From Candidatus Saccharimonadota bacterium (GTDB taxonomy: Bacteria; Patescibacteriota; Saccharimonadia; Saccharimonadales; UBA4665): a stretch of 32,000 bases of DNA. The translations under genes and the position numbers were made by a program. Positions 3,997 through 27,998 of the stretch are shown here, in pieces (position 1 is the first letter of the stretch; each line of letters opens with the position of its first letter). The notes under the pieces were generated by a model, which was not told the DNA's origin, did no database searches, and was given only the letters and a program-made list of their open reading frames with translations. The stretch is taken from the NCBI GenBank assembly GCA_963718045.1, contig OY970350.1:660001-692000 (forward strand), written 5' to 3'.

Positions 3997-4800
3997 TTAT
4001 TTCTTGCGTTTAGCAGCCGTAATAACATTTTCAAACAGGGCACAAACAGTTAGGGGGCCAACACCGCCTTTTTTAGGGGTTATTGTTAAATCTAAGCGTT
4101 CATAAAGTGAATCGTCTACGTCACCGACTGTCTTACCGTCTTCACTGGCTACACCGGCATCAACAACCACTGCCCCTTCTTTGATCATATCGGGGTATAA
4201 AATAGCCGGACTGCCGGTAGCTGTTATGATGACATCCGCTTTTAATGTTTCAGATTTTAGATCGGATGTTTCTCGGTCAGCTAGACTAACGTTGATGCCG
4301 CTATCCTTAAGCATTCTCTCTAGCGGCTGGCCGACTAGTTTACCCCGCCCTATTAGAAGAACTTCTTTGCCGATTAGATCTATGCTATAGCCGGCGAGCA
4401 GCCACATGATAGCCATAGGCGTAGCTGGTTCAAGGGTAGCTTTCCTGCCTAGGGCATCGACATCTTTACTGGAATCAACCAGGTTAACCAGTTCATCTGT
4501 TTTTTCAGGGTTTTCAATGGGCAGCTGGATTATTATGCCGTTAACTGACTCATCTTTATTCAGCTCTCTAAGTTTAGCTGGTACTTCCGCTTGAGAAATG
4601 TTATACACATCGACCATAACACCAATGTCCTGGCCATACTTCTGCTTAAGTTTAACGTAGACATTAATAACCGGATGGTCAATGGTTAGGATTATGGCTA
4701 GTTTAGGTCTTATATGATGAGTTGAATAAAGAGTATTCACCTCACTGGCCTGTCTTTTTTTAATAAACCCGGCTAGTTCTTGGCCGTTAAGTAATTTCAT
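3997..4800 (-). CDS. folD: bifunctional methylenetetrahydrofolate dehydrogenase / methenyl-THF cyclohydrolase
   Basis: 267 aa. Motifs: MKLLNGQELA..., PKLAIILT, VNGIIIQLP, LLIGRGKLVGQPL, PKKGGVGPLTVCALFENV. This is the classic FolD pattern. Confidence 0.9.
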   Translation of the reverse strand: MKLLNGQELAGFIKKRQASEVNTLYSTHHIRPKLAIILTIDHPVINVYVKLKQKYGQDIGVMVDVYNISQAEVPAKLRELNKDESVNGIIIQLPIENPEKTDELVNLVDSSKDVDALGRKATLEPATPMAIMWLLAGYSIDLIGKEVLLIGRGKLVGQPLERMLKDSGINVSLADRETSDLKSETLKADVIITATGSPAILYPDMIKEGAVVVDAGVASEDGKTVGDVDDSLYERLDLTITPKKGGVGPLTVCALFENVITAAKRKK

Positions 4801-4867
4801 GACTGTTATTATACCTGAGATGAAGTTATGGACAGTAGCTGGACTTTAAAGCTATGATGTCAAAGAG

Positions 4868-5602
4868 ATGAAACTAAGTGTCAGATGGATAGTTATAGCT
4901 GTCTTTTTTATATCTTCCCTGCTCTCAATTTCTAGTTCTGCCTTTGCCGATAACCAAACGCTCAATGATCTATCCTGGCCTAACTGCAACGAAAAGATAA
5001 CCAGCTTAAGCAGCAGCGGCATAGTAGGTATTAATGACGGATTGGATTTTAGTCACAATCCTTGTTTAGCTCAGGAAAGCCTGCTCTTCCATAACAACTA
5101 CTCATTGTATTTAAACACTGGCTATCCGGGTAAAAGTTATGCCCTTATGTTTAAGGGCAGTCCAAAACACTGCCAGATAGATAATTTAAACTGCCTGGCA
5201 TACAACTTTGGCTATAATGATGCTGTTTATTCCATGAAGTATGCCTGGAGCCAGGATAGCCATAGTTTTACCTGGTGGCTTGATGTTGAAACTGAAAACA
5301 GCTGGACGAATAGTTTTAAACAGAACCGAGAGGCTTTAATCGGCATGACTAATGCCATTCATAAATATGCCTTTATGCCGACTATTGGCTTTTATTCCTA
5401 CCCAGGTCAATGGCAATCAATAACAAAGGACTGGATAAATTTACTGCCTGCTTGGGTTGCTACAGCATCTGATTCCAAGCAAGCAGCTGCTAATTACTGC
5501 GTTAACAGCTTTAACGGCGGACCTACATGGTTGACTCAATATACTAGATACTTAGATATGAATTATAATTGTTTGGATCTAAGTGTTAATATTTTAAGAT
5601 AA
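4868..5602 (+). CDS. secreted protein, GH25-like / DUF1906-like putative muramidase
   Basis: 244 aa. Signal peptide MKLSVRWIVIAVFFISSLLSISSSAFA|DN. Ordered motifs resemble GH25 lysozymes: DLSWPN, WWLDVETE, IGFYSYPGQW, LPAWVA, TWLTQYT...DMNY. Confidence 0.4.
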   Translation: MKLSVRWIVIAVFFISSLLSISSSAFADNQTLNDLSWPNCNEKITSLSSSGIVGINDGLDFSHNPCLAQESLLFHNNYSLYLNTGYPGKSYALMFKGSPKHCQIDNLNCLAYNFGYNDAVYSMKYAWSQDSHSFTWWLDVETENSWTNSFKQNREALIGMTNAIHKYAFMPTIGFYSYPGQWQSITKDWINLLPAWVATASDSKQAAANYCVNSFNGGPTWLTQYTRYLDMNYNCLDLSVNILR

Positions 5603-5779: not shown

Positions 5780-6529
5780 ATGAATGAGAGGACACCTAAA
5801 GAGTTAAAATCCGAGATTGTTCCTGCCCATGAAATTAATCTAGCCCGCCTCAGTAGTGAAGAGGCTCTACGAGCTTATCTACAAGAACAAACCCATTTAT
5901 TTAGATCTAAAGTTCTAGATAAATTAGCTAAGCATGGTGTCACAGAAGGTGCAGGTTGGGCTATCTTTACCCTTACAAGTCAAGAAGAAGACGTTCTAGG
6001 AAATAGTGTTATGACATTAATGCCGGATAAAGAAGTTCTCGTGTTATACTTGCCTCATCGTAACTCAAGAACAATGGATGGTCATCCAATACCTAACATA
6101 AGGATCATTACAAACGAGCCTTACTGTTCATGTGATAGAGCAACTCAGTATCTTAGTAGAGATTTTACGCTAGATCATGAAGACGACGTTCAGTATTTTG
6201 TCGACGCACAAGATATGTATGATTTTACTGACGAGTCCAAGAAAAAACCTCTTAGTGAAGAAAATCCACCAGGAAGGAATGAAACATTAACGCCACTTTT
6301 CTGGGCTAATGAGGATGGCAACCTGTGCATTTCGAGACCGATAAGCTACTTCACTGAAGCAACGGGTATTCATCTGACAAATCCGGATGATGGCACACCG
6401 ATAGAGAGCTACCCTTTTGGCTTGTACACCTCTCCTTTTGATGTACTCTATGCTCTAGAACAAGGAGAAGAACTGTTTGCTATGATAGAACGTTTAGATC
6501 CGGTACTTATTTCATCGGATGCTCTTTGA
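5780..6529 (+). CDS. hypothetical acidic protein (no recognisable domain)
   Basis: 249-aa ORF with no competing frame. TGaTAGTAT (5765-5773) lies 6 nt upstream of the ATG. Confidence 0.55.
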   Translation: MNERTPKELKSEIVPAHEINLARLSSEEALRAYLQEQTHLFRSKVLDKLAKHGVTEGAGWAIFTLTSQEEDVLGNSVMTLMPDKEVLVLYLPHRNSRTMDGHPIPNIRIITNEPYCSCDRATQYLSRDFTLDHEDDVQYFVDAQDMYDFTDESKKKPLSEENPPGRNETLTPLFWANEDGNLCISRPISYFTEATGIHLTNPDDGTPIESYPFGLYTSPFDVLYALEQGEELFAMIERLDPVLISSDAL

Positions 6530-6591: not shown

Positions 6592-7059
6592 ATGGTTAAC
6601 CTTAAGCTTAGATTGAAAACCAAAGAGTGGCTTAGAAGATATATACCAGCCGAAATACTTGGCACAGTTTTTGCCTTAATTGCCGCCTCTTTAGTTTTTA
6701 GCCATAATCATTCATATGTCCTGGCTGCTGGAGCCGGTTGGCTTGGTGAAGGCATTGGTTTTTACGGCTATTTTATATCGACTGAACTGTTCCTTAATAA
6801 CCAAAAGTACAGGAGCTATTCTTTCTTTAAACGGATAGCTACGGTTGTTGGTGTAGCCAGCACAAATTTATTTGTTGAATTTGCACCGGCTGAAGTCTTA
6901 GACAACTTCTTGATACGTCCATTTGCCATGTATCTAGTGCCTCAATATATCCATCCCTACCCGATTGGCTTTCTGGTTGGTAAGTTTGGTGCTGATTTAA
7001 TTTTCTACATGCTGGCTGTAGTCGGCTATGAAACAAGAAAAAGATGGCTTAAGAGATAG
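6592..7059 (+). CDS. hypothetical integral membrane protein (about 4 TM)
   Basis: 155 aa with hydrophobic segments (ILGTVFALIAASLVF, VLAAGAGWLGEGIGFYGYFI, etc.). TGaTATACT (6577-6585) lies 6 nt upstream of the ATG. Confidence 0.55.
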   Translation: MVNLKLRLKTKEWLRRYIPAEILGTVFALIAASLVFSHNHSYVLAAGAGWLGEGIGFYGYFISTELFLNNQKYRSYSFFKRIATVVGVASTNLFVEFAPAEVLDNFLIRPFAMYLVPQYIHPYPIGFLVGKFGADLIFYMLAVVGYETRKRWLKR

Positions 7060-8257
7060 CCGTTCGGCGACTGCCTACCGCTGAACCAGATACTTTGTAC
7101 CATCTAGGTAAGACATAGGCGGCAAGGGCAGTAGTTAGGGGGACTGCCAGAAGCAGGCTAATACTAGGTACAACTGTTCTTACTACCGCTTCAATAATAG
7201 TTTCATCGTTCAGGGTAACGGCTAGTGGCTGGCCGGTTGTATATAGAACTGTTGCTACAACTGTTGGCAGAGCCGTACCGGCATACAAAATAAAAAGAGT
7301 GTTGATTAGGGCGGCTATATGTTCGCGGCCGACTGACATGCCTTGACGGTAGATTTTAAGCGAACTAAGTTTTGGGTTAGCTTTATGGATTTCATCAACG
7401 GCAGCAGCCTGGCCTGTCGTAATATCTTCCAGTATTCCGAGTGAGGCAATGACCACGCCGCCCAGGAAAAGTCCGGTTATATTAATGTAGTGAGGCGCAT
7501 ATTGAAGTAGTGTCACAGATTGTTCTGAGTTTACTGTTTCAGTTGGATTGCCAGTTACGCCAGTCAGATAAACAGTTAAAGCGGCTAGGCCGATAACAAT
7601 ACATAAACTTAAAACTGTGCTTATATATGCTAGAGTTGTTCTTCGCCTAAAACCATGGGCAATAAATATGGTAAAGGTGGCAATCATAAATGCTCCTTCT
7701 ATGCAGGTAGCAAAAGCAGCATCACCGTGGACAATTCTCGGCAGAACAAAGATTGTTAAGATACCGATGGTGAATACTAAGCCGGCGGCAGCAGTGACTC
7801 CCCGCCAGCGGCCAATTAGAATTACTAAAGCAGCTAAGATAGCTAGGATTGTTAACGCACCTGTAATCCTATATCTATCTAAAAATGAGTATTGATCACC
7901 GTTATTTGGCTGAACGTCCAGTAAAACTGTGCTGCCGATAGGCAGTCGCTTGGAGTTTGGATCCGACGGAAAATAGCTCCGGGTGGTAGTCTCAATCTTA
8001 TTTTTGTCAAGACCTTCGAGAATTCTGACTTTAACTTGCTGGCTACCCGGTGAGTTATTAACTTCATAGACGCTAAGTACTTGGGCTTTAACAAATTGCT
8101 CCTGGGCTCCTTTTTTATAAGGGCTTAGGTTAACTAAGAAAACAGCACTGGACAATAAAATTAGACTAAGCAAGATTATGTAGACAAGCTTTTGCCACCT
8201 GTATTTACCAAGGGTTAAAAAGAGCGAATTAGGCACAAGGCCGGTCTTTATAGTCAC
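7049..8257 (-). CDS. polytopic membrane protein, YibE/F-like
   Basis: 402 aa with a GTG start. It has an N-terminal TM, a soluble approximately 90-aa segment, then about 7 TM. The motif LGILEDITTGQAAAVDEI resembles the conserved YibE/F loop. The family assignment is from memory only. Confidence 0.4.
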   Translation of the reverse strand: MTIKTGLVPNSLFLTLGKYRWQKLVYIILLSLILLSSAVFLVNLSPYKKGAQEQFVKAQVLSVYEVNNSPGSQQVKVRILEGLDKNKIETTTRSYFPSDPNSKRLPIGSTVLLDVQPNNGDQYSFLDRYRITGALTILAILAALVILIGRWRGVTAAAGLVFTIGILTIFVLPRIVHGDAAFATCIEGAFMIATFTIFIAHGFRRRTTLAYISTVLSLCIVIGLAALTVYLTGVTGNPTETVNSEQSVTLLQYAPHYINITGLFLGGVVIASLGILEDITTGQAAAVDEIHKANPKLSSLKIYRQGMSVGREHIAALINTLFILYAGTALPTVVATVLYTTGQPLAVTLNDETIIEAVVRTVVPSISLLLAVPLTTALAAYVLPRWYKVSGSAVGSRRTAIS

Positions 8258-16312: not shown

Positions 16313-16387
16313 GCTCCCGTGGTGAAATGGATATCACAATGGTCTTCGGAACCATTATTGGGGGTTCGAGTCCCTTCGGGAGTACCA
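16313..16387 (+). tRNA. tRNA-Arg (anticodon TCG), CCA encoded
   Basis: Folded by hand: acceptor GCTCCCG/CGGGAGT (G1-U72), D stem GTGA/TCAC, anticodon stem ATGGT/ACCAT with loop CTTCGGA, T arm GGGGG-TTCGAGT-CCCTT, discriminator A, CCA at 16385-16387. Confidence 0.85.
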
Positions 16388-16462
16388 AGCATAAGAGGTA
16401 TTTGCTTTCAGCGTCTGCAAGAGTACTATGAAATTGCAAGGTATAAGTGCCACATGAGACTA

Positions 16463-16491
16463 TTGACAAACTCATAGAGTAATACTAAATT
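16463..16491 (+). promoter_or_regulatory. sigma70-type promoter TTGACA-17-TAAATT for ORF 16525
   Basis: -35 at 16463-16468 and -10 at 16486-16491. A 33-nt leader follows, with an AGAAAGG SD. Confidence 0.45.
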
Positions 16492-16524
16492 ATCTTATTA
16501 TTTCTAACAGAAAGGTTAAGTAAA

Positions 16525-16788
16525 ATGAGTTTTGCAGGATTTGAGGGTGTTTCAACAGTAACCTTTGGAGACGAAATTGGCGGATTCCATGTTGCCCCAG
16601 CTGCCGAGTGCGATATGCCGGAAGATGAACCTTTCGATAGATTACTTCATGAAATAGGAGGTGATACGTTAGGCTTAGTGGGAATATCACGCGCATTTAA
16701 TTATGAGGATCTACCTCCTATTGTTCATCCGAAACATATAAGTATGGCCTTACACGGGGCTGGTCATATCTCTAAGTTGATAAAATAA
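16525..16788 (+). CDS. hypothetical acidic protein
   Basis: 87-aa ORF with promoter and SD as above. No recognisable domain. Confidence 0.45.
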   Translation: MSFAGFEGVSTVTFGDEIGGFHVAPAAECDMPEDEPFDRLLHEIGGDTLGLVGISRAFNYEDLPPIVHPKHISMALHGAGHISKLIK

Positions 16789-17035
16789 TATCTACAGATT
16801 AAACTCTAACCTTTTTCATTATATTGATAGTCTTGCCAGGACTCTAGGTGTAACTCGCGAGGAACTGAGTCGTGCGCAGGCAGAGAAAAGAGAAAGGTTT
16901 GGTTCATTCACCAGTTTTTTTATAGAGACAGCAGCCATTCCAGATGGTAATCCATGGATATAATATCTTGAGTCTAATCCAGATCGTTACCCAGAAATTA
17001 CGCAGTAATCTAAGCTTATTTATAAATCAATTAGA

Positions 17036-17839
17036 CTAGGCTATGCGGCGATGAAGATCATGCACTTTTGGATGTCTACCTCTGACATATTTATCAATTG
17101 CCTCTGCAATAGCGGTTTTAACTGCATCACGGCGATCATAGTCGGTAGGTAATTCTGCTACTTCAAGAGCAGGATTAATTAACTCATCACCCAGGTAACC
17201 AAGTCTATATCTAATCGACCTGTCAGCCAGAAGGCCGCGGCGTAGGACTGATATTCCAAACCTTGCAAGGTCTCGATCACCCTTTTTAGCTAACTCATTG
17301 CCTCTTAACTTTATCTGTCCATTTTCCATATCCGCTAAGACTGGCGTGCCACTAGTGCTTAGCATAATGTTCTTTGCCTGCATATCACCATGGGTTATGC
17401 CCCTAACCTGTAAGCTTCCGGCTAGATTTGCAGCAAAATTTACCGCTGGAGTAATCTCTCTATGCAGACGTCTTGAAGCAACATTTTCATTCCAGCTTAA
17501 TTGACCGAGGTGTCTTAGGTCTGGGCGATACTTAGATATAAGATAGGCATACAATCCTTCTGATGCAACCTCAAGAGGCTCAATAGTATCGAACCCCTCA
17601 CCCCGTGCATATTCCAGTACTTCTTTCTCATGCAGTGCTCTTACGGTTAGTGTAAATGGCTTAATTGCTACATCGCCGTAAGGTGATAAAGTGCCAAATA
17701 ATACACCGTGTCCAGAGTCCGAATCACCAAGATGTCTATAAGGATGTTCAGCAAAATAGCCAACGTTTCTATATATATCAGCTATTAATGTTTCGTGTGT
17801 CGGCAGGGGGGTAGGATTTTCTATTGCTAAGTTTTTCAT
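17036..17839 (-). CDS. protein-kinase-like (PKL) fold kinase, small atypical type
   Basis: 267 aa. Motifs: LSPYGDVAIKPF (VAIK beta3 Lys), HEKEVLEYAR (alphaC Glu candidates), ITHGDMQAKNIML (HxDxxxxN catalytic loop), VLADMENG (DFG equivalent). Confidence 0.65.
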   Translation of the reverse strand: MKNLAIENPTPLPTHETLIADIYRNVGYFAEHPYRHLGDSDSGHGVLFGTLSPYGDVAIKPFTLTVRALHEKEVLEYARGEGFDTIEPLEVASEGLYAYLISKYRPDLRHLGQLSWNENVASRRLHREITPAVNFAANLAGSLQVRGITHGDMQAKNIMLSTSGTPVLADMENGQIKLRGNELAKKGDRDLARFGISVLRRGLLADRSIRYRLGYLGDELINPALEVAELPTDYDRRDAVKTAIAEAIDKYVRGRHPKVHDLHRRIA

Positions 17840-18459
17840 AAATCACCGTCTTCTAGTCCTTTAATGGCTAGCCGGGTTAATTCTCTTATTCTAACATCTG
17901 ACAATACTGGTTGCAGGTTTTTTTCAATAGATGAAGCTAGATTATGTCTTATTCGGCCTGAACGAGGCTGGCCGTATCTAAAATGATAAGGAGGGATGAA
18001 AACTACTTGGCCGCTTTCTCTAAGTAACGCCAGGCTCTTTATACCAAGATCCTGCATGGAAAACTTTCGGGCATCAAGCGCTACTTGTCTTCCGACATGT
18101 AAGTACAAATTATCTATTGCTCTATCACCTCTCGGGTGGGAACCCAAAGTTATAGCTACAATTGGTAGTAAATCTACGGGCTTTCTAAAAACAGTATAGT
18201 CATCACCGACATGATTAATGGGTAGTAAATCTGAATATGGTAGAACATCAGTAGAAAATAAAGCTTCTTGCGTACGATCACCGTAAGGTGATAAATCCTT
18301 CATAGCTATAAATTCTTGTCCGAAGTTATCGAAAAACTGAAGCGGCCTAATTGATGAATGACCCCTTGATACCTCTAGAGAAGGAGGGGACAATTTGATT
18401 TCTGAAGATGCTAACTCGGCGTAGCTAGATGGGTATTGCACTTTTATATAATAACACAA
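17836..18459 (-). CDS. degenerate paralogue of the downstream kinase (putative pseudokinase)
   Basis: Its stop overlaps the kinase start (ATGA at 17836-17839). It shares LSPYGD with the kinase, but the VAIK Lys and HGD..N are replaced (DRTQEALF; MQDLGIKSLALL). The track start is TTG at 18459. A more likely start is GTG at 18441, 6 nt downstream of TGtTATTAT. Confidence 0.5.
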   Translation of the reverse strand: MCYYIKVQYPSSYAELASSEIKLSPPSLEVSRGHSSIRPLQFFDNFGQEFIAMKDLSPYGDRTQEALFSTDVLPYSDLLPINHVGDDYTVFRKPVDLLPIVAITLGSHPRGDRAIDNLYLHVGRQVALDARKFSMQDLGIKSLALLRESGQVVFIPPYHFRYGQPRSGRIRHNLASSIEKNLQPVLSDVRIRELTRLAIKGLEDGDL

Positions 18460-18476
18460 AACTATTTAACTTACAA
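18448..18476 (-). promoter_or_regulatory. promoter TTGTAA-17-(TGt)TATTAT, 6 nt upstream of GTG 18441 (leaderless-type)
   Basis: Read on the minus strand: -35 is the reverse complement of 18471-18476, and -10 is the reverse complement of 18448-18453. Confidence 0.4.
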
Positions 18477-18518: not shown

Positions 18519-18755
18519 ATGAATAAGTCTTTTCAGGTATATGTGGGCGTAATGCTAATGATTATAGTTCTCTTAATGGCTGCACTGGTTGGTGGCCTAA
18601 TTTATGCTGTTAGAGATGTTAAAACTCAGGCTAATAATGTTAACTTAAAGGTAAATAATTTTAACCACAACTTAAATCAGCTAAATGGTGATCTAAATAA
18701 TATAGACAACCAGCTAAAGATAGATAATTCAGATACTACTTCACTTAAACCATAA
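18519..18755 (+). CDS. small membrane-anchored Asn-rich coiled-coil-like protein
   Basis: 78 aa. N-terminal TM VYVGVMLMIIVLLMAALVGGLIYAV, followed by N-rich heptad-like repeats. TATTAT lies 6 nt upstream of the ATG. Confidence 0.45.
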   Translation: MNKSFQVYVGVMLMIIVLLMAALVGGLIYAVRDVKTQANNVNLKVNNFNHNLNQLNGDLNNIDNQLKIDNSDTTSLKP

Positions 18756-18821: not shown

Positions 18822-19535
18822 TTGATGGTATACTTGCAATTAATGACAGATTCTAATGCAAACAAAGATGGAATTGATGTACCAAAACCTGGTAATTGGC
18901 CAGGCGCTTTTGAGTCTTATAAGCTAGTAAAACCACATATTAAACCTCAAATCTGGAACTTTGTTTCAGTGATTGGTTTATCTATAGCAGTTCTTTTACT
19001 CTTAGACATAGTTTTTAGCATTGTTTTTAAGCACACTTTTATGAATACCACGCTTAATGACCTAGCCAGCTTATTAATCAGCTCTTTTATGGAGGCTGTC
19101 ATTATAACTATGTTCTTCGCCTCTTTGAGGGGTGATGAATTTACACTCCAAACAGCTATAAATTACGGCCTCCAAAGGCTTCTAAAAATGATCGGTCTTA
19201 TTTTTATTATGTACGTTATTATGCTGGTAAGTTTTATCCTGCTAGTCATACCCTTCTTCTTTGTTGCGCCAAGAGTCCTGCTGGCACCGTATTACCTAAT
19301 ACTTAATGACTGTACTGTTAGTGAAGCACTGGCTGCCAGCTGGCACTCAACAAAAGGTCAATATAAGAATGTTTACGGCATAATTGGTATCCAGGTATTA
19401 GTTGCCTTAGCCTTTATTACAATTATTGGCATACCATTCGCTATTTACTGGGGCATTATTAACTCTGGTTCTTTTGCTTTGCTAACTCTTTATTTGTCGC
19501 AGTCAAAAGATAAGACTGACTTAAAAAAAGCTTAA
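18822..19535 (+). CDS. hypothetical polytopic membrane protein
   Basis: 237-aa ORF from a TTG start. A more likely start is ATG 18843 (MTDSNANK), 8 nt downstream of TGgTATACT (18826-18834). About 5 TM. Confidence 0.5.
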   Translation: MMVYLQLMTDSNANKDGIDVPKPGNWPGAFESYKLVKPHIKPQIWNFVSVIGLSIAVLLLLDIVFSIVFKHTFMNTTLNDLASLLISSFMEAVIITMFFASLRGDEFTLQTAINYGLQRLLKMIGLIFIMYVIMLVSFILLVIPFFFVAPRVLLAPYYLILNDCTVSEALAASWHSTKGQYKNVYGIIGIQVLVALAFITIIGIPFAIYWGIINSGSFALLTLYLSQSKDKTDLKKA

Positions 19536-20258
19536 ATCAGTTATTTCCGGATACTTCATCTTAAGTTCGATTGGTTGATTAGAAGCTACATAAATTAAGT
19601 TGTGCGGATAGAAATACATTCTGTTCGTGCTAGTTGGGAAAACCTTAGCGTAAGTAAAGTACTTTTTATATACCCGGTGCATTTGAGACAAAACTGAACT
19701 GGCTGCAAGATCTGATATCACGTTAGCTGCTAATAAGCCATCTGGTTTTAATGCTTTCAGTGAATGCTTAGCGAACTTTTTAGATAGTATCTCGTCTGGT
19801 ATTTTATTGTCGCTATAGGCGTCAATTAAGGTGAGGTCATATTTTATAGAGTTTTTAGTCAGGTAGTGAAGTCCGTAGTCATGAAAGATTTTTATTCTGT
19901 CATTTGGTTTGAAATGAAAATACTTCTCGGCAATGGTGTCGAGTTTTGCGTCAGGCTCAACTATGTCAAAGCTTATGTCGCTTTGGTTATTAACAATATA
20001 GCTTGGCAGTGTATATACACCGCCGCCAACAGCCAGAACATGAGAGGGTTTTATGTTTTCTATTAGCTCGTTAAAACGACGGTTATAGCCAAAAAGCAAG
20101 GTTGGTTTATTGTCTTGTGGTATGCCTGATTGGGCTGTTTTAAACCTACCGCTATATAGGACGCGCGCGGGTCTGCCGGCATATATTTCATCAATAACTT
20201 CGTACTGGTTTAATTCAGTGACAACTTTATATATAACTTTGCTGCTGGTATCATCCAT
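19521..20258 (-). CDS. spermidine-synthase-like (class I SAM-MTase fold) protein
   Basis: 245 aa. The motif order resembles SpeE: NQYEVIDE..G..L.SG..Q, VLAVGGGVYTLP, FDIVEPD, DRIKIF.DYG, YDLTLIDAYSD. The canonical GGGDG is absent, so the activity is uncertain. Confidence 0.45.
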   Translation of the reverse strand: MDDTSSKVIYKVVTELNQYEVIDEIYAGRPARVLYSGRFKTAQSGIPQDNKPTLLFGYNRRFNELIENIKPSHVLAVGGGVYTLPSYIVNNQSDISFDIVEPDAKLDTIAEKYFHFKPNDRIKIFHDYGLHYLTKNSIKYDLTLIDAYSDNKIPDEILSKKFAKHSLKALKPDGLLAANVISDLAASSVLSQMHRVYKKYFTYAKVFPTSTNRMYFYPHNLIYVASNQPIELKMKYPEITDLSFF

Positions 20259-23505: not shown

Positions 23506-25029
23506 ATGCCATCATCAACTGAGAAAATTGGTAGCCTCATTGCTCAAATACGACAAGAACGAGGCTTATCACAGGCAGAATTCGCCAGACGGCTCGGCAC
23601 CAGCCAATCGGCTGTAAACCGTATGGAACGGGGTAACCAGAACCTGAGTATTGAAACTTTAGGCCGTATTAGTGATGTCTTAAACAAACAGCTTATTAGT
23701 TTGAGCGGCGAAGCTGTTAACCTTAGAATTGAAGGCGGCCACAAGCTAAAGGGCGAGATAACCTTAAAGACCTCCAAGAATGCAGCCGTTGGACTGCTGT
23801 GTGCCAGTTTACTTAACGAAGGCGTAACAAAGTTTAAGGCTTTCCCCCGAATTGAAGAAGTCTATCGGATGATTGAAGTGCTGGAAAGTATCGGTGTAAC
23901 AGTTAGATGGTTTGAAGGCAATGATATTGAAATTAGACGGCCTAAGAAATTAAATCTGGAAAATATTGATATTAATGCCGCTACGCAAACGAGAAGTGTG
24001 CTTATGTTCATTGGCCCGCTAATACATGAGTTTACTAAATTTAAGATTCCTTATGCCGGTGGCTGTAAGCTTGGTACTAGAACCATTCAGCCCCATCTAT
24101 TTGCTATGGAGGAATTCGGCGTAAGTATTGTAGCCAGCAACAGTAACTACCACATTGACGTAAAGAAAAAACCAATCGATAGAATAACTCTTTATGAACA
24201 AAGCGATACTGTTGCGGAGAATATTGTAATGGCCGCCTCTAAATTTAGTACCGAAACAGTTATTGAATTTGCCAGTGCTAATTATGCTGTCCAGGAAGTC
24301 TGTTTATTCTTAAGAAAATTAGGTGTCAGCGTAAACGGTATTGGTACAACCACTTTAAGGGTAAAAGGTATGACTTCTATTAAAAAGAACATTGTCTATG
24401 CTCCTAGTGAGGATCCAATTGAGGCAATGTTCTTTACAGCAGCTGCCGTTACAACGAATTCCAAGATTACCATTAAAAGGGTGCCGATTGAGTTTATGTC
24501 AGTTGAGCTACTTAAGCTTGAAAAGATGGGGCTTAAAGTAACCAGAAGTGACAGATATAAGGCAAACAATGGTTACACTGATTTAGTTGATCTGACTATA
24601 TTCCCTCATGACGGTGAACTTAAGGCTTTATCGGATAAAATCCATTCACTGCCCTACCCGGGACTTAATGCCGATAACCTGCCCTACTTTGTGCCTATTG
24701 CCGCCTGTGCTAAGGGAAGAACCTTAATTCATGACTGGATGTATGATAATCGGGCTTTATATTACACTGAACTTACTAAGATTGGCGCTCAGATAGAACT
24801 AGCTGATCCTCATAGACTTTATGTAATTGGCCCAACTAAGTTTAGACCGGCTGATGTTGTCTGTCCGCCTGCCTTAAGGCCAGCCTCACTGCTGCTTATT
24901 GGCATGTTAGCAGCCGACGGCATTAGCATGCTTAGAAATGTCTATACCATAAACCGTGGTTATGAGGATCTGGCTGCCAGATTGAATGTTTTAGGCGCTA
25001 AGGTAACTGTCGTTCACGATATCAGTTAG
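23506..25029 (+). CDS. murA: fusion protein: N-terminal XRE-type HTH + UDP-N-acetylglucosamine 1-carboxyvinyltransferase
   Basis: 507 aa. Aa 1-65 form the HTH: IRQERGLSQAEFARRLGTSQSAVNRMERGNQNLSIETL. The remainder aligns by eye with MurA: LRIEGGHKLKGEITLKTSKNAA, AGGCKLGTRTIQPH (active-site Cys retained), INRGYEDLAARLNVLGAKV. Confidence 0.8.
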   Translation: MPSSTEKIGSLIAQIRQERGLSQAEFARRLGTSQSAVNRMERGNQNLSIETLGRISDVLNKQLISLSGEAVNLRIEGGHKLKGEITLKTSKNAAVGLLCASLLNEGVTKFKAFPRIEEVYRMIEVLESIGVTVRWFEGNDIEIRRPKKLNLENIDINAATQTRSVLMFIGPLIHEFTKFKIPYAGGCKLGTRTIQPHLFAMEEFGVSIVASNSNYHIDVKKKPIDRITLYEQSDTVAENIVMAASKFSTETVIEFASANYAVQEVCLFLRKLGVSVNGIGTTTLRVKGMTSIKKNIVYAPSEDPIEAMFFTAAAVTTNSKITIKRVPIEFMSVELLKLEKMGLKVTRSDRYKANNGYTDLVDLTIFPHDGELKALSDKIHSLPYPGLNADNLPYFVPIAACAKGRTLIHDWMYDNRALYYTELTKIGAQIELADPHRLYVIGPTKFRPADVVCPPALRPASLLLIGMLAADGISMLRNVYTINRGYEDLAARLNVLGAKVTVVHDIS

Positions 25030-25694: not shown

Positions 25695-25769
25695 TGGTGC
25701 GGGATACCGGAATTGAACCGGTGCATGTAACTTGGAAGGTTACCGTACTAACCATTATACTAATCCCGC
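25695..25769 (-). tRNA. tRNA-Gly (anticodon TCC), CCA encoded
   Basis: The reverse complement folds as: acceptor GCGGGAT/ATCCCGC, anticodon stem GTAAC/GTTAC with loop CTTCCAA, T arm ACCGG-TTCAATT-CCGGT, discriminator A, CCA. Confidence 0.9.
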
Positions 25770-25816
25770 TTGGAAGCTGAAGATATTATATATTATCTTA
25801 ATCTGATAGATATTAT

Positions 25817-26068
25817 CTAGCCTAAACTATTTGTTAATTGTCCGACTGATGGTTGACTTAGTTTACTCTTATTTACACCAGCCGGCTTCCTTATGGACAC
25901 CCTGGCAAGACCATTTGCTGTAGGTGTGACGCGCAAAAAAGTATGGGTGCTGTCACCAAAAAGAACACCAGCGTTTGAAGTAAATTGGATGAAAGCTGAG
26001 GCCATGATCGCTCCAATAACTACAGATCCGAGCAATAGATAAAAACCAAAGTTGCTATTCCTAGTCAT
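25817..26068 (-). CDS. small single-pass membrane protein
   Basis: 83 aa. The start overlaps the upstream stop by 8 nt (ATGACTAG). TM segment FGFYLLLGSVVIGAIMASAFI. Confidence 0.45.
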   Translation of the reverse strand: MTRNSNFGFYLLLGSVVIGAIMASAFIQFTSNAGVLFGDSTHTFLRVTPTANGLARVSIRKPAGVNKSKLSQPSVGQLTNSLG

Positions 26069-27002
26069 TCCACTGCCATCCTGACTCTATTGAACTTAGA
26101 TTAGCTGAATTACCATTAACGGCATGGATGATGTCAAAGAAGTTATCGCCGTTAGAAGGAACGTTGTCGGTAAGAAGGACTGTTTCTTCAATAACGGCGG
26201 TATTATCGGCTAGGTTATTAGCTTGGATATAGTAGGCCGGGCTGCCGGCAAAAGTAGTACTTGCCTGCTTGGTGATGGTAAAGCCTTGTAAGTTCTTAGT
26301 GAAATCTGCTTCAATAGCTTGTTTTGAGTAACTGGTAAAACTAGAGCTGGTCAGTGCTGTGGCCGAAGCTATAATTTTATATATATCCGATGAATTAACC
26401 AGGTCGTTACCATTATAGGCATTGAGTGTGCAGCTGCCGTTTGAATTATTGACATTGAGCACAGTGTTGAATGACAGACTATAGCAAGGTGTTTGGACAC
26501 TTAATTTAGCCGTGCCGCCGGTAGTTGCAGCTGGCTGATTAGCATTTAGGTTTAGCCTCGGATCATGAACTACTACGTTAACCCAAAAACCTATACCGAC
26601 TAAGATCGCCAGTACCGAGACTGTTACGCTGGCTAACATTAGTCTTCTATGGGTTAGGTGGTAGCTCATAGTAATAAGGACTATGCCTGAAATACCCAGA
26701 CCAATACCTAAAATGGGTATTAGCATACCACTGCCAATACCTAAAATACCGAGGGCTAAAGCCATTGCTCCCCAGTGCTGTTTATGATGGTTAAGAGGAA
26801 CAGCATAAGCCGGCATATTAGGATAAGCAAGGACGTCCCTATAAGCTGTCTTAGAATTAGTAGCAGGACCGTTTGAGTATACGTGTGAGGCAGATGCCTG
26901 CGGCTGGGGACCAGATATTAACTTGTACCCACAGTTTCCGCAGAAAGCAGCTCCAGTCTCAACGGCCTCATTACAATTAGGGCAGAGTCTTTCTTCTGGC
27001 AT
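26061..27002 (-). CDS. zinc-ribbon / transmembrane / extracytoplasmic-domain protein
   Basis: 313 aa. N-terminal CPNCNEAVETGAAFCGNCG (CX2CX10CX2C), then 3 hydrophobic helices (aa about 78-145), then an approximately 165-aa Ser/Thr/Asn-rich soluble domain. Confidence 0.55.
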   Translation of the reverse strand: MPEERLCPNCNEAVETGAAFCGNCGYKLISGPQPQASASHVYSNGPATNSKTAYRDVLAYPNMPAYAVPLNHHKQHWGAMALALGILGIGSGMLIPILGIGLGISGIVLITMSYHLTHRRLMLASVTVSVLAILVGIGFWVNVVVHDPRLNLNANQPAATTGGTAKLSVQTPCYSLSFNTVLNVNNSNGSCTLNAYNGNDLVNSSDIYKIIASATALTSSSFTSYSKQAIEADFTKNLQGFTITKQASTTFAGSPAYYIQANNLADNTAVIEETVLLTDNVPSNGDNFFDIIHAVNGNSANLSSIESGWQWND

Positions 27003-27035
27003 TTTTGTCTTTTTAAGGTATTGCCTACTTCTTAT

Positions 27036-27806
27036 TTAAGCACGCTGGCCACAGTGCGTGCAATAGAGATAATGTTGGCTGTTTCTAAAACCGCACGCCC
27101 GGCAATACTCGTTATGACCAACTGCTGATAGTCCCATGTCTTCATCTAGCTCCTGAGAACGGAAGTATAGATTGAAGAAATTAGCGCTTAAAGCAATGGT
27201 TATTATGACCGACATATAGGTAAATACGCTTACCCCTGCAGTCAGTCCGAAGTCATATAAACCGTGCAGCAAAACTGCGGCAATAAATACAGGCCAAATA
27301 GTAAATGGGCTCCTACCCGCTAGTTTGGCCTTAGCTAGGTAATAGCCGGCCATAGATGTTAAAGCGGCATGGAATATAGGGGTCATAATGAGCCGGCCTA
27401 AGCCTGCTTTAGTTCCAAATTGCATCGTATAAAGTATATTTTCAGGCAGTCCGAAACTAAGACCGGCAATGGCAAAATAGATAATACCGTCAATGTGTTC
27501 GTTAAAGTATTTTTTAGGGAATAGAACTATTGCAAGTGGCAGGAACTTTAAGCTTTCTTCGATAAGTCCTATTCCAAGGAAACTAAATAGTAAATGCGGT
27601 AGAGGAGTACCAACCCTAGTTGAACTTAATGGTATTAAAGCCTTTTCAACTAAAGCAGCTGCAACTGCACCTAAAATACCGAAGCCGGCAGCCATCCATA
27701 AGGCGTAGACCGGTTCTTTCTTACCCCTGTCGTTCTTAAGTAAAAAGATGACCAAGGCGATAGCTAGGACAATGAAAGTAAGTATTAAAATAAAGAGGGT
27801 CACCAT
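27036..27806 (-). CDS. PrsW-family intramembrane protease with a C-terminal zinc ribbon
   Basis: 256 aa from ATG 27806. PrsW signature motifs: GLIEESLKFLP (EExxK) and VLLHGLYDF (HxxxD). C-terminal CRACGFRNSQHYLYCTHCG (CX2CX10CX2C). The track N-terminal extension to 27962 is rejected because it reads through the tRNA. Confidence 0.65.
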   Translation of the reverse strand: MVTLFILILTFIVLAIALVIFLLKNDRGKKEPVYALWMAAGFGILGAVAAALVEKALIPLSSTRVGTPLPHLLFSFLGIGLIEESLKFLPLAIVLFPKKYFNEHIDGIIYFAIAGLSFGLPENILYTMQFGTKAGLGRLIMTPIFHAALTSMAGYYLAKAKLAGRSPFTIWPVFIAAVLLHGLYDFGLTAGVSVFTYMSVIITIALSANFFNLYFRSQELDEDMGLSAVGHNEYCRACGFRNSQHYLYCTHCGQRA

Positions 27807-27884
27807 AGTTTTTTTGTTTTTATGACACCTAAGCAGTAGTATACACCACTTTATTATTGTATAATCACCCCTGTTAGTAAGTTT

Positions 27885-27961
27885 GCCCCGATAGCTCAGC
27901 TGGATAGAGCAGAGGACTTCTAAGCCTAAGGCCGTAGGTTCGAATCCTACTCGGGGCACCA
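27885..27961 (+). tRNA. tRNA-Arg (anticodon TCT), CCA encoded
   Basis: Acceptor GCCCCGA/TCGGGGC, D stem GCTC/GAGC, anticodon loop CTTCTAA, T arm GTAGG-TTCGAAT-CCTAC. The anticodon stem GAGGA/GCCTA has only 3 Watson-Crick pairs (27-43 G.A, 31-39 A.G). Confidence 0.75.
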
Positions 27962-27998
27962 CAGATTAGACTGTTTTAGATCTTAATACTATCTCTAC

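Follow-up and report, generated by a model that had tools for sequence, protein, structure and literature searches.

A chromosomal gene pair of Saccharibacteria encoding a Kdo/WaaP-type kinase and a probable pseudokinase partner

Described systems closest to the gene pair

WaaP/RfaP of P. aeruginosa (PDB 6DFL) is a stand-alone protein of about 260 aa that has no activation segment and contains an HGD....N loop, a conserved Trp after the hinge and a KDL..L..S..GL motif in the C-lobe. These features recur in the kinase encoded by the second gene of a minus-strand pair in the window, which is the whole 32,000-nt stretch analyzed here (contig OY970350.1, positions 660,001 to 692,000). Compared with the Kdo/WaaP family, the window kinase scores below the Pfam cut-off (19.6 against 21.3 bits), carries DxE in place of the usual motif at the metal-binding Asp, shows DSxH in its glycine loop, comes from a phylum not expected to make LPS, and has an obligatory partner gene that most likely encodes a pseudokinase. 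To our knowledge, no obligatory pseudokinase partner has been described for WaaP or KdkA.

Bud32, the minimal kinase/ATPase of KEOPS, functions only as part of a complex in which a small protein, Cgi121, binds its N-lobe. Structures of Bud32/PRPK (PDB 4WW7, 7SZC, 8K20) are the best structural match of the predicted partner protein, and the kinase profile matches Bud32 weakly. However, the window kinase reaches 15 bits with a Bud32 model whose cut-off is 125, the pair has no genomic link to Kae1/TsaD, its partner is itself predicted to adopt a kinase fold, and Saccharibacteria have TsaB/D/E.

The HipBA and HipBST systems resemble the pair in their overlapping two-gene layout with the kinase second. 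In HipBST, HipS resembles part of the kinase HipT and neutralizes it. Unlike the window kinase, HipA and HipT have a PI3/4-kinase-like HipA fold and Pfam families of their own, which are unmatched here. Hip systems also include an HTH protein and are widely mobile across phyla, whereas the window pair is confined to Saccharibacteria and is often found at a fixed housekeeping position. In FAM20A–FAM20C and STRAD–LKB1, a dead paralogue binds and controls an active kinase. These eukaryotic pairs are sequence-unrelated and have no operon coupling, and offer an analogy of concept only.

The bacterial pseudokinase families ActPs1–3, GLW, CP1, DYD, and DLHK have been reviewed as kinase folds with degraded motifs, most of them lacking all three and having no assigned function (PMC12599244). 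They are Hanks-type Ser/Thr derivatives, and CP1, described from cyanobacteria and proteobacteria, has additional domains, whereas the window partner is a single-domain protein of about 200 aa in a Kdo/Bud32-like setting and is set apart from them by description. Patescibacteria and Kdo/Bud32-type proteins do not appear in the text of that review (PMC12599244). Operon-encoded kinase–pseudokinase pairs have barely been explored in bacteria, and our literature searches found no published description of this pair in Saccharibacteria. We consider it probable (about 60%) that the pair is a Saccharibacteria-specific, chromosomally inherited operon encoding a co-translated, cytoplasmic kinase–pseudokinase complex.

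Gene organization, promoter and catalytic residues of the kinase

The features of the pair, all on the minus strand, are as follows (window coordinates).

17036..17839, minus strand: kinase gene, 267 aa, divergent Kdo/WaaP-type protein-kinase-like enzyme by sequence
17324..17332, minus strand: DME (D170–E172), DFG-equivalent metal-binding Asp and invariant Glu
17369..17392, minus strand: catalytic loop HGDMQAKN (residues 150–157), D152 and N157 invariant
17660..17662, minus strand: K60 codon (VAIK lysine), invariant in 19 sequences
17672..17689, minus strand: LSPYGD codons of the kinase, located in the turn of the beta2-beta3 hairpin that precedes VAIK
17705..17728, minus strand: GDSDSGHG (residues 38–45), glycine-rich-loop equivalent in alignment A6
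17836..17839, minus strand: ATGA stop/start overlap of partner and kinase, read from the sequence as translational coupling
17836..18441, minus strand: partner gene (probable pseudokinase), 201 aa from GTG 18441
17843..17847, minus strand: GGTGA, Shine-Dalgarno-like motif 3 nt 5' of the kinase ATG, within the partner 3' end
17989..18054, minus strand: degenerate catalytic region of the partner, ...QDLGIKSLALLRESGQVVFIPP, placed by the hhalign register and the family alignment
18277..18294, minus strand: LSPYGD codons in the partner, from the 50-sequence partner alignment
18448..18476, minus strand: promoter, with -35 TTGTAA (18476–18471), a 17-nt spacer and extended -10 TGtTATTAT (18456–18448)

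Both ORFs, 17036..17839 (267 aa, ATG start) and 17836..18459 (207 aa, TTG start), are real, and they share the ATGA at 17836–17839 by which the first-pass annotation had described them as overlapping. The mechanical ORF of the partner runs on to TTG 18459. GTG 18441 is most likely the true start, because all homologues begin with MQYP, and the resulting 201-aa gene is also called by NCBI on near-identical contigs. The GGTGA motif may serve as the Shine-Dalgarno sequence of the kinase. The tRNA-Arg(TCG) gene reported nearby was located at 16313–16387. The description of these ORFs as orphan genes has to be abandoned, since homologues of both were found, the unannotated partner family alone comprising about 50 clusters at 50% identity.

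With its end 7 nt ahead of GTG 18441, the promoter would give a leaderless mRNA. As a consensus scan, the promoter pattern was not significant by itself (10 sites against 8.1 expected). The proposed TTGTAA-17-TGtTATTAT element of leaderless type gains its support from conservation: leaderless extended -10 geometry precedes the partner gene in 9 of 11 loci examined, and TTGnnn-17-TGnTAnnAT is found 6–10 nt before the partner start in L015, L001, L002, L011, L012, L014, L017, and L018.

The VAIK, HGDMQAKN, and ADME motifs that had been read by eye in the downstream ORF are present, at K60, residues 150–157 and D170/E172, respectively. Alignment A6, which holds 19 kinase-family sequences diverging down to about 20% identity, shows no variation at K60, E71, D152, N157, D170, E172, and D190. 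In the glycine loop, D41 and S42 are invariant and H44 nearly so. The catalytic register is borne out by alignment to MSK1 and WaaP. With its catalytic residues intact and invariant in all 19 members, the protein is indeed a small stand-alone protein-kinase-like enzyme as claimed, and it is apparently active. We infer from the sequence that the activity is that of a kinase rather than of an ATPase only. The dN/dS ratio of the gene is 0.16 against a 91% identical relative.

Against PF06293, with the Pfam gathering cut-off of 21.3 bits as membership threshold, the window kinase obtains 19.6 bits (E 6.8e-4). The same model is matched at E <= 0.01 by 18 of the 19 kinase-family members (best 3.7e-8), and precomputed PF06293 matches are on record for 10 kinase relatives. 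The kinase-family profile aligns with WaaP 6dfl (2.2e-5) from helix C through the KDL..L..S..GL motif of the C-lobe. It also aligns to Bud32, RIO2, and Ser/Thr kinases, and the Ser/Thr kinase sequence matches are equal in quality to those of WaaP. By these profile matches, the kinase most likely belongs to the Kdo/WaaP branch of protein-kinase-like enzymes, within which it is divergent. Membership in a well-characterized family, had it been close, could have explained the kinase away; the apparent membership is distant, in an organism not expected to make LPS, and does not. A classification of the kinase by fold was rejected, as its AF2 model is poor (pLDDT 59.7) and Foldseek returns generic kinases with TM of about 0.3. 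The substrate could be a protein, an envelope sugar or a small molecule.

Distribution and genomic neighborhood of the pair

In each of the 13 distinct loci recovered, the partner and kinase genes are both present and overlap, by 1–23 nt in every locus other than the window. There is one copy per locus, and the two genes diverge in parallel. The upstream ORF is thus conserved in relatives and always coupled to the kinase, including in a second deep clade, where the upstream ORFs are distantly related to the partner (hhalign E 7.8e-4). A metagenome pattern scan with the kinase alignment yielded one further locus only. All named hosts are Saccharibacteria except one, a MAG labelled Chlamydiae. 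The distribution is patchy, with about 50 partner clusters and many Saccharibacteria without the pair. Natural transformation has been demonstrated in the phylum (PMC10633639). Saccharibacteria genomes are very small, and the longest contig carrying the kinase is 832 kb. The pair is unlikely to be dispensable in the lineages that carry it, because it is kept together, overlapping and with its promoter in such small genomes over deep evolutionary distances.

The gene order in the second deep clade is Mur ligase, partner, kinase, groES, groEL. The pair keeps its own promoter even where it begins 32 nt behind the Mur ligase. The groES–groEL genes are CIRCE-controlled, and co-regulation of the pair with groESL was rejected because the CIRCE operator and a separate promoter lie between kinase and groES. 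The stop codon of the kinase gene falls inside the -35 box of groES, which points to a fixed, ancient chromosomal position in this clade. No CIRCE was found in the window. A conserved FolC adjacency was also rejected, as the clade-2 Mur ligase is not the FolC-like protein of the window. Surroundings of the clade-1 loci are variable, often tRNA-adjacent and in some cases contain toxin–antitoxin genes. L012 and the window have in common a nearby PrsW/Zn-ribbon/HTH-EPSP/tRNA block. The GC content of the locus is unremarkable.

Some of this context would suit a kinase acting on sugars or small molecules of a cell-envelope glycopolymer, like WaaP or KdkA, with the pseudokinase as an accessory. The nearest Pfam family is Kdo/WaaP, the profile alignment with WaaP extends through the C-lobe, a Mur ligase lies directly upstream in clade 2, and MurB, GT2, GtrA, and PIG-L are encoded within 10 kb of the pair in the window. 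Nevertheless, we regard an envelope function as unlikely. Saccharibacteria have a Gram-positive-type envelope and are not expected to make LPS. The operon contains no glycosyltransferase, the pair has its own promoter even close behind the Mur ligase, and the Ser/Thr kinase matches are as good as those of WaaP. The strong synteny of these small genomes accounts for the neighborhood just as well; the TsaD–MurE arrangement, for instance, is present too in the cultivated Saccharibacterium Southlakia epibionticum, whose annotation tables list no PF06293 protein (PMC10633639 supplements).

The first-pass annotation had suggested that the pair could be a toxin/regulator pair, a defence module or an effector of host interaction. 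As a toxin–antitoxin or abortive-infection module, it would consist of a growth-arresting kinase toxin, comparable to HipA/HipT or Stk2, and a pseudokinase that acts as antitoxin by mimicry, in the way HipS acts on HipT. Such a module would fit the bicistronic overlapping layout, in which the partner is the smaller, faster-evolving gene and is placed first, and the patchy phyletic distribution. It would also fit several clade-1 settings: L002–L004 lie among YafQ/RelB and HTH_17/PIN modules, in four of the six clade-1 loci a tRNA gene lies no more than 1 kb away, with a different tRNA each time, and indels and divergence concentrate between the kinase and tRNA-Arg when 95% identical relatives are compared. 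Several findings nonetheless make this reading quite unlikely. PADLOC gives only generic 30-residue catalytic-loop matches, and none of its defence models is matched over the full length (STK_OB, E 1.1e-3, 15.9 bits). No toxin family of Pfam, HipA-type or other, is matched, neither protein contains a HipA or HTH Pfam domain, and neither has a DNA-binding domain for autoregulation. The viral contigs, phages, and plasmids searched contain no relatives, and no integrase or mobile-element gene was recognized among the annotated neighbors in the window and in L001–L021. The restriction of named hosts to Saccharibacteria with one exception, the single copy per locus, the parallel divergence and the ancient position of the kinase stop codon before groES also argue against it. 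The earlier framing is therefore not upheld. With no real PADLOC matches, no phage, plasmid or viral relatives, no HTH and a conserved chromosomal site beside Mur ligase and groESL in the deep clade, the pair is a lineage-specific chromosomal module and not a recognizable defence or toxin system. The variable tRNA-adjacent surroundings in clade 1, which also fit an accessory or conflict module, count against a chromosomally inherited kinase–pseudokinase operon, as do the patchy distribution, the weak sequence homology between partner and kinase, the poor AF2 model of the kinase and the single confident model of the partner.

The partner protein and its relation to the kinase

Sequence and profile searches of Pfam, NCBIfam, and PDB sequences gave no match to the partner. 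Its best AF2 model has a pLDDT of 79 and a pTM of 0.76; one of five models is confident (79 against 48–57), from an input alignment of six sequences. The best 50 matches of this model in Foldseek against the PDB are all kinase-fold proteins. PRPK 7szc_A (E 4.8e-5) and Bud32 4ww7_A/4wwa_A are the best (TM 0.52–0.63), and 7szb_C and 8k20_B are further matches. The fold check proposed earlier for the upstream protein thus gave kinases throughout these 50 PDB matches, with PRPK/Bud32 ahead. The predicted structure corresponds to a minimal bilobal kinase fold without activation segment, a resemblance of fold only.

We counted as a pseudokinase any kinase fold in which one or more of three residues are missing, namely the Lys of VAIK, the Asp of HRD, and the Asp of DFG. 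The partner region 17989..18054 pairs with HGDxQxKN...G.PV..D of the kinase, with Asp replaced by Ser, Asn by Arg, and DFG by IPP. PYGD-R stands where the kinase has PYGDVAIK, and the VAIK Lys is gone. Ser in place of the catalytic Asp is a feature of the window clade, and more distant partner members retain Asp; (I/V)PP stands in place of D-x-E/DFG in the partner family. Because the Lys, the Asn of the catalytic loop, and the Asp of DFG have all been substituted in a predicted kinase fold, with the register taken from weak profile alignments and one confident model, the partner is most likely a pseudokinase with a Bud32/PRPK-like minimal fold. The view of the upstream ORF as a degenerate kinase is supported in this respect. 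The suggestion that it is decayed is not supported, as it belongs to an old, conserved family whose motifs are retained down to about 20% identity in a 50-sequence alignment. The partner dN/dS of 0.54 rests on about 29 differences and was set aside as uninformative. That it differs from the kinase value is due to a local divergence hot spot in the 3' half of the kinase gene, where identity is 86% and the background about 95%.

The two proteins had been suggested to be paralogues. BLASTP aligns only LSPYGD between them (E 0.04), so paralogy cannot be claimed from the pairwise sequence comparison. What stands is a common register in three profile–profile comparisons of modest significance (P 0.07, 0.023, and 0.008), which place D.A..R..G..hF.PP of the partner on HGD.Q.KN..G.PV..D of the kinase. 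The hhalign probabilities are low (0.8–5%). The order of secondary-structure elements is colinear between the partner and kinase models.

Alternatively, AF2 could have produced the kinase fold of the partner spuriously because the alignment was shallow; the protein would then be an adaptor or substrate of other descent that has only a PYG turn in common with the kinase. The single confident model among five, the sequence searches that find no kinase and the low hhalign probabilities would agree with this. It is very unlikely in view of top Foldseek matches that are all kinases and span the whole model, a register shared by three independent profile pairs and the colinear secondary structure. 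A bacterial KEOPS-like Bud32 module, serving as ATPase switch for TsaD in tRNA t6A synthesis, is hardly credible and was rejected: several relatives are named 'Bud32' by JGI, the partner model best matches Bud32/PRPK and L017 has TsaD 3 kb away, but that TsaD is on the other strand beside its usual MurE neighbor, TIGR03724 gives the kinase only 15 bits (E 0.013) and does not match the partner, no TsaD was found within 10 kb on either side of the pair in the window, many Saccharibacteria are without the pair, and S. epibionticum encodes all of the bacterial TsaB/C/D/E proteins while its annotation tables list no PF06293 protein (PMC10633639 supplements).

For the kinase–pseudokinase complex favored here, the following sequence of events can be proposed. 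A leaderless mRNA would start at the extended -10 promoter and first encode the pseudokinase of about 200 aa with its minimal Bud32/PRPK-like fold. The ATGA overlap would then give the active minimal kinase or ATPase of about 267 aa from the Kdo/WaaP branch, so that both would be made in fixed proportion. The two proteins would assemble into a heteromeric enzyme, presumably in the cytoplasm, in which the pseudokinase subunit would take no part in catalysis and would either regulate the kinase or present substrate to it. A bolder proposal, which we put forward only tentatively, is that the pair could represent the first known obligate kinase–pseudokinase heterodimer of bacteria, with two minimal WaaP/Bud32-type folds derived from an ancient duplication in Saccharibacteria and a dead subunit gating or targeting the live one, as a prokaryotic equivalent of FAM20A–FAM20C or STRAD–LKB1, or else that the partner could be a mimic antitoxin of a kinase toxin; either way it would represent a new pseudokinase family, absent from Pfam, in an ultra-small epibiotic bacterium.

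The partner is a stand-alone family of about 200 aa with no Pfam, NCBIfam or PDB relative, an apparent pseudokinase dedicated to one kinase. If the complex exists, it would offer a compact and tractable model of about 470 residues for a dead kinase controlling a live one, and would contribute a regulatory or signaling element to what little is known of gene function in CPR/Patescibacteria. The pair as it stands overturns no existing concept.

The LSPYGD segment had been noted as a nucleotide repeat of 17 of 18 nt. The repeat between 17672–17689 and 18277–18294 is real, with 18 of 19 nt identical and 0 matches expected by chance. The nucleotide conservation is not borne out as a meaningful feature, as L001, L002, and L011 encode LSPYGD with other codons; a DNA or RNA element was rejected because nucleotide identity is limited to the window lineage. 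At the protein level, Y is invariant and P and G nearly so in the 50-sequence partner alignment. Judged from the sequences, the near-identical codons are the result of an identical peptide and local codon usage.

The gene pair, its overlap and its promoter

The pair and a tRNA gene lie in the window as follows:
17036..17839, minus strand: kinase ORF, 267 aa, ATG start
17836..18459, minus strand: partner ORF of the mechanical ORF list, 207 aa, TTG start
17836-17839, minus strand: ATGA overlap of partner and kinase, read from the sequence
16313-16387: tRNA-Arg(TCG)

Re-reading of the sequence showed that the first-pass annotation had described the two ORFs, their overlap, the motifs and the tRNA-Arg(TCG) gene accurately. 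The partner start at TTG 18459 was replaced by GTG 18441, giving a protein of 201 aa: the MQYP position is the first residue in every homologue, and NCBI gene calls in near-identical contigs use the same start. The two genes had also been called orphans, but both have relatives in protein databases. A partner-type gene of 171-207 aa overlaps the kinase start by 1-23 nt in all 13 distinct loci recovered (window/L005-8, L015, L001, L002, L011, L012, L013, L014, L016, L017, L018/L020, L019 and L021).

A TTGnnn-17-TGnTAnnAT box ends 6-10 nt before the partner start codon in 9 of 11 loci examined. This recurrence bears out the leaderless-type promoter proposed earlier and supports a leaderless partner-kinase transcript. 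Many other genes in the window lack a Shine-Dalgarno motif and carry a -10-like box, TAnnnT, whose end lies 5-9 nt from the start codon, for example 3997..4800(-), 5780..6529(+), 6592..7059(+), 7049..8257(-), 19521..20258(-) and 23506..25029(+). The layout is thus a habit of the genome rather than peculiar to the pair, and this Saccharibacteria genome may commonly produce leaderless mRNAs.

A putative Kdo/WaaP-type kinase and its partner family

The kinase carries VAIK, HGDMQAKN and ADME motifs. It scores 19.6 bits against the Pfam Kdo/WaaP model PF06293, just under the cut-off of 21.3, with weaker matches to Bud32, Kdo kinase and lanthionine-synthetase kinase domains. Among 5.8 billion proteins, its relatives form 8 clusters with a single-sequence query and 18 with a profile query; most have precomputed PF06293 matches and are named 'hypothetical' or, at JGI, 'Bud32'. 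Across the 19 sequences of the kinase alignment (down to ~20% identity), K60, E71, W116, G147, D152, N157, D170, E172 and D190 are invariant, as are D41 and S42, the DS of the glycine-rich-loop equivalent, and 18 of the 19 match PF06293 (best E 3.7e-8). The family profile matches Pseudomonas aeruginosa WaaP (6dfl) from helix C to the C-lobe (E 2.2e-5), with a shared C-lobe motif KDL..L..S..GL, and matches Ser/Thr kinases, Bud32 and RIO2 about as strongly. Because the AF2 model is poor (pLDDT 59.7), its Foldseek matches say no more than 'kinase'. The kinase is predicted from its sequence to be a divergent minimal protein-kinase-like enzyme with intact catalytic residues, nearest the Kdo/WaaP branch, and the earlier claim of a full set of core motifs holds.

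Neither the partner alone nor its 50-member family has a sequence match in Pfam, NCBIfam or PDB. In a full HMMER scan, 1.84 billion representatives yielded this family of 50 stand-alone proteins of 128-215 aa, 45 of them at E < 1e-10. Its AF2 model is usable (pLDDT 79.1, pTM 0.76), with only one of five models confident, and its top PDB matches are without exception kinase-fold proteins, led by human PRPK and Bud32 (E 4.8e-5 to 1e-3, TM 0.5-0.63). Three independent profile-profile comparisons of partner and kinase, each weak taken singly (shallow alignments, P = 0.07; deep alignments, P = 0.023; clade-2 partner, from the second deep kinase clade, P = 0.008), share one colinear register. In it, the partner PYG falls on the kinase beta2-beta3 turn and the VAIK strand with its Lys is missing (PYGDR-TQE instead). 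At the catalytic Asp position, partners of the window's clade have Ser or Asn and more distant members have Asp; the catalytic-loop Asn is Arg, and DFG / D-x-E becomes (I/V)PP. Since the Lys, Asn and DFG positions are replaced, the partner is best described as a putative pseudokinase. The upstream ORF had been read as a degenerate paralogue; the kinase-fold model and replaced catalytic positions agree with degeneracy, while an ancient common origin with the kinase is plausible but not demonstrated.

LSPYGD occurs in both proteins. The encoding stretches (17672-17690 and 18277-18295) share 18 of their 19 nt, a match for which shuffles give an expectation of 0, so the nucleotide repeat reported earlier is real. 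The identical codons, however, are peculiar to this lineage: identity is 16/18 in L015, a locus ~95% identical to the window, whereas the loci L001, L002 and L011 encode the same or similar peptides with different codons. A conserved DNA or RNA element was therefore rejected. In the partner alignment, Tyr of PYG is invariant and Pro and Gly nearly so; other family-wide motifs are G.DY..F, TLGTG and D.A..R..G...F.PP..F. The kinases retain PYG only within the window's clade and have lost it in clade 2, where the partner keeps only G-Y. The PYG hairpin tip may form an interface or a ligand contact that both proteins share.

Hosts and groESL synteny

Named hosts are Candidatus Saccharibacteria / Saccharimonadales and one MAG labelled Chlamydiae, which is probably mis-binned. 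The clade-2 upstream protein is tied to the partner family by profile-profile comparison only (E 7.8e-4, colinear). Clade-2 gene order is Mur ligase, partner, kinase, groES, groEL, and groESL also lies directly 3' of the kinase in locus L013. In groESL-adjacent loci, a CIRCE operator, TTAGCACTC-N9-GAGTGCTAA, lies between the kinase stop and groES, 8-64 nt past the stop:
L017:5830-5870, CIRCE operator
L018:4052-4092, CIRCE operator
L014:1765-1805, CIRCE operator
L021:2465-2505, CIRCE operator
L013:6796-6822, CIRCE operator

In four clade-2 loci, promoter and operator are very tightly packed: the groES -35 box, TTGAC(C/G), shares bases with the kinase TGA, and the 9-nt CIRCE spacer contains the -10 box. 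With its own operator and promoter, groESL is separately controlled, and the adjacency therefore reflects ancient synteny rather than shared function.

Readings of the pair and surroundings in the window's clade

The finding of the first-pass annotation is real, and the core of its kinase and degenerate-kinase interpretation is right. From sequence and model, we read the pair as a kinase of Kdo/WaaP type whose partner belongs to a pseudokinase family that lacks annotation. The bacterial pseudokinase families already published are of the Hanks type, and the partner is set apart from them by description (PMC12599244); the literature searched for this pair gave no description of it. The pair is best read as a lineage-specific operon of the chromosome that would encode a minimal, active kinase or ATPase together with a dedicated pseudokinase, made in fixed proportion and presumably forming a complex. 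A sugar-kinase (WaaP-like) activity is a possible sub-case.

A toxin-antitoxin or other conflict system, the toxin/defence framing raised earlier, is possible but disfavoured. The two-gene layout, patchy distribution, tRNA proximity (a tRNA gene within 1 kb in 4 of 6 loci of the window's clade) and toxin-antitoxin genes adjoining the pair in one lineage are in its favour. So is the stretch from the kinase 3' half to tRNA-Arg, a hot spot where divergence and indels are locally concentrated: the window and L015 share only 86% identity over the 3' half, against a background of ~95%, and the stretch between the small ORF 16525..16788 and tRNA-Arg(TCG) (window ~16390-16520, L015:6301-6882) is not alignable, with an extra 77-aa ORF in L015. 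However, PADLOC matches are limited to 30-residue catalytic-loop segments, no relatives occur among the viral contigs, phage genomes and plasmids searched, GC content is unremarkable, the annotated neighbours include no recognised integrase or other mobile-element gene, and both proteins lack an HTH. A KEOPS-like role is effectively excluded: cultivated S. epibionticum makes do with a full TsaB/C/D/E set, and its annotation tables list no PF06293 protein and a different gene upstream of groES (PMC10633639), so the pair is neither universal in the phylum nor needed for t6A synthesis.

Surroundings vary within the window's clade, with a two-component system and toxin-antitoxin genes in L002 and L019 and glycoside hydrolases in L001. 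In L002, YafQ/RelB and HTH_17/PIN modules (1892-2476 and 4516-5221) lie on the upstream side of the pair, within 1-4 kb of it; L003 and L004, of the same lineage, have them in like position. L012 adjoins a PrsW/Zn-ribbon/HTH-EPSP/tRNA block that the window has 5-10 kb away. Its conserved order is tRNA-Gly(TCC), zinc-ribbon protein, PrsW-family protease, tRNA-Arg(TCT) (window 25695-27961; L012:6794-8674). Because the mechanical PrsW ORF (27036..27962, GTG) covers the tRNA-Arg gene (27885-27961), the true PrsW start must be an internal one. The 507-aa fusion (window 23506..25029, plus strand; L012:8703..10223, minus strand) carries an XRE-type HTH (HTH_3/HTH_31) at its N-terminus, followed by a complete EPSP-synthase/MurA-type domain, an architecture unusual for such an enzyme and kept in two distant Saccharibacteria lineages.

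Divergent from the pair, 18519..18755 (+) encodes a protein of 78 aa that has a single hydrophobic helix at its N-terminus, an Asn-rich repetitive tail and weak, sub-cut-off pilin-N/DUF5326-like matches. The small conserved ORF 16525..16788 (+; 87 aa, no Pfam match) is followed in another frame by a start-less remnant (16784-16963). The same split layout occurs in L015 (5835-6326, minus strand) and may reflect an old frameshift in one gene or a pair of small genes.
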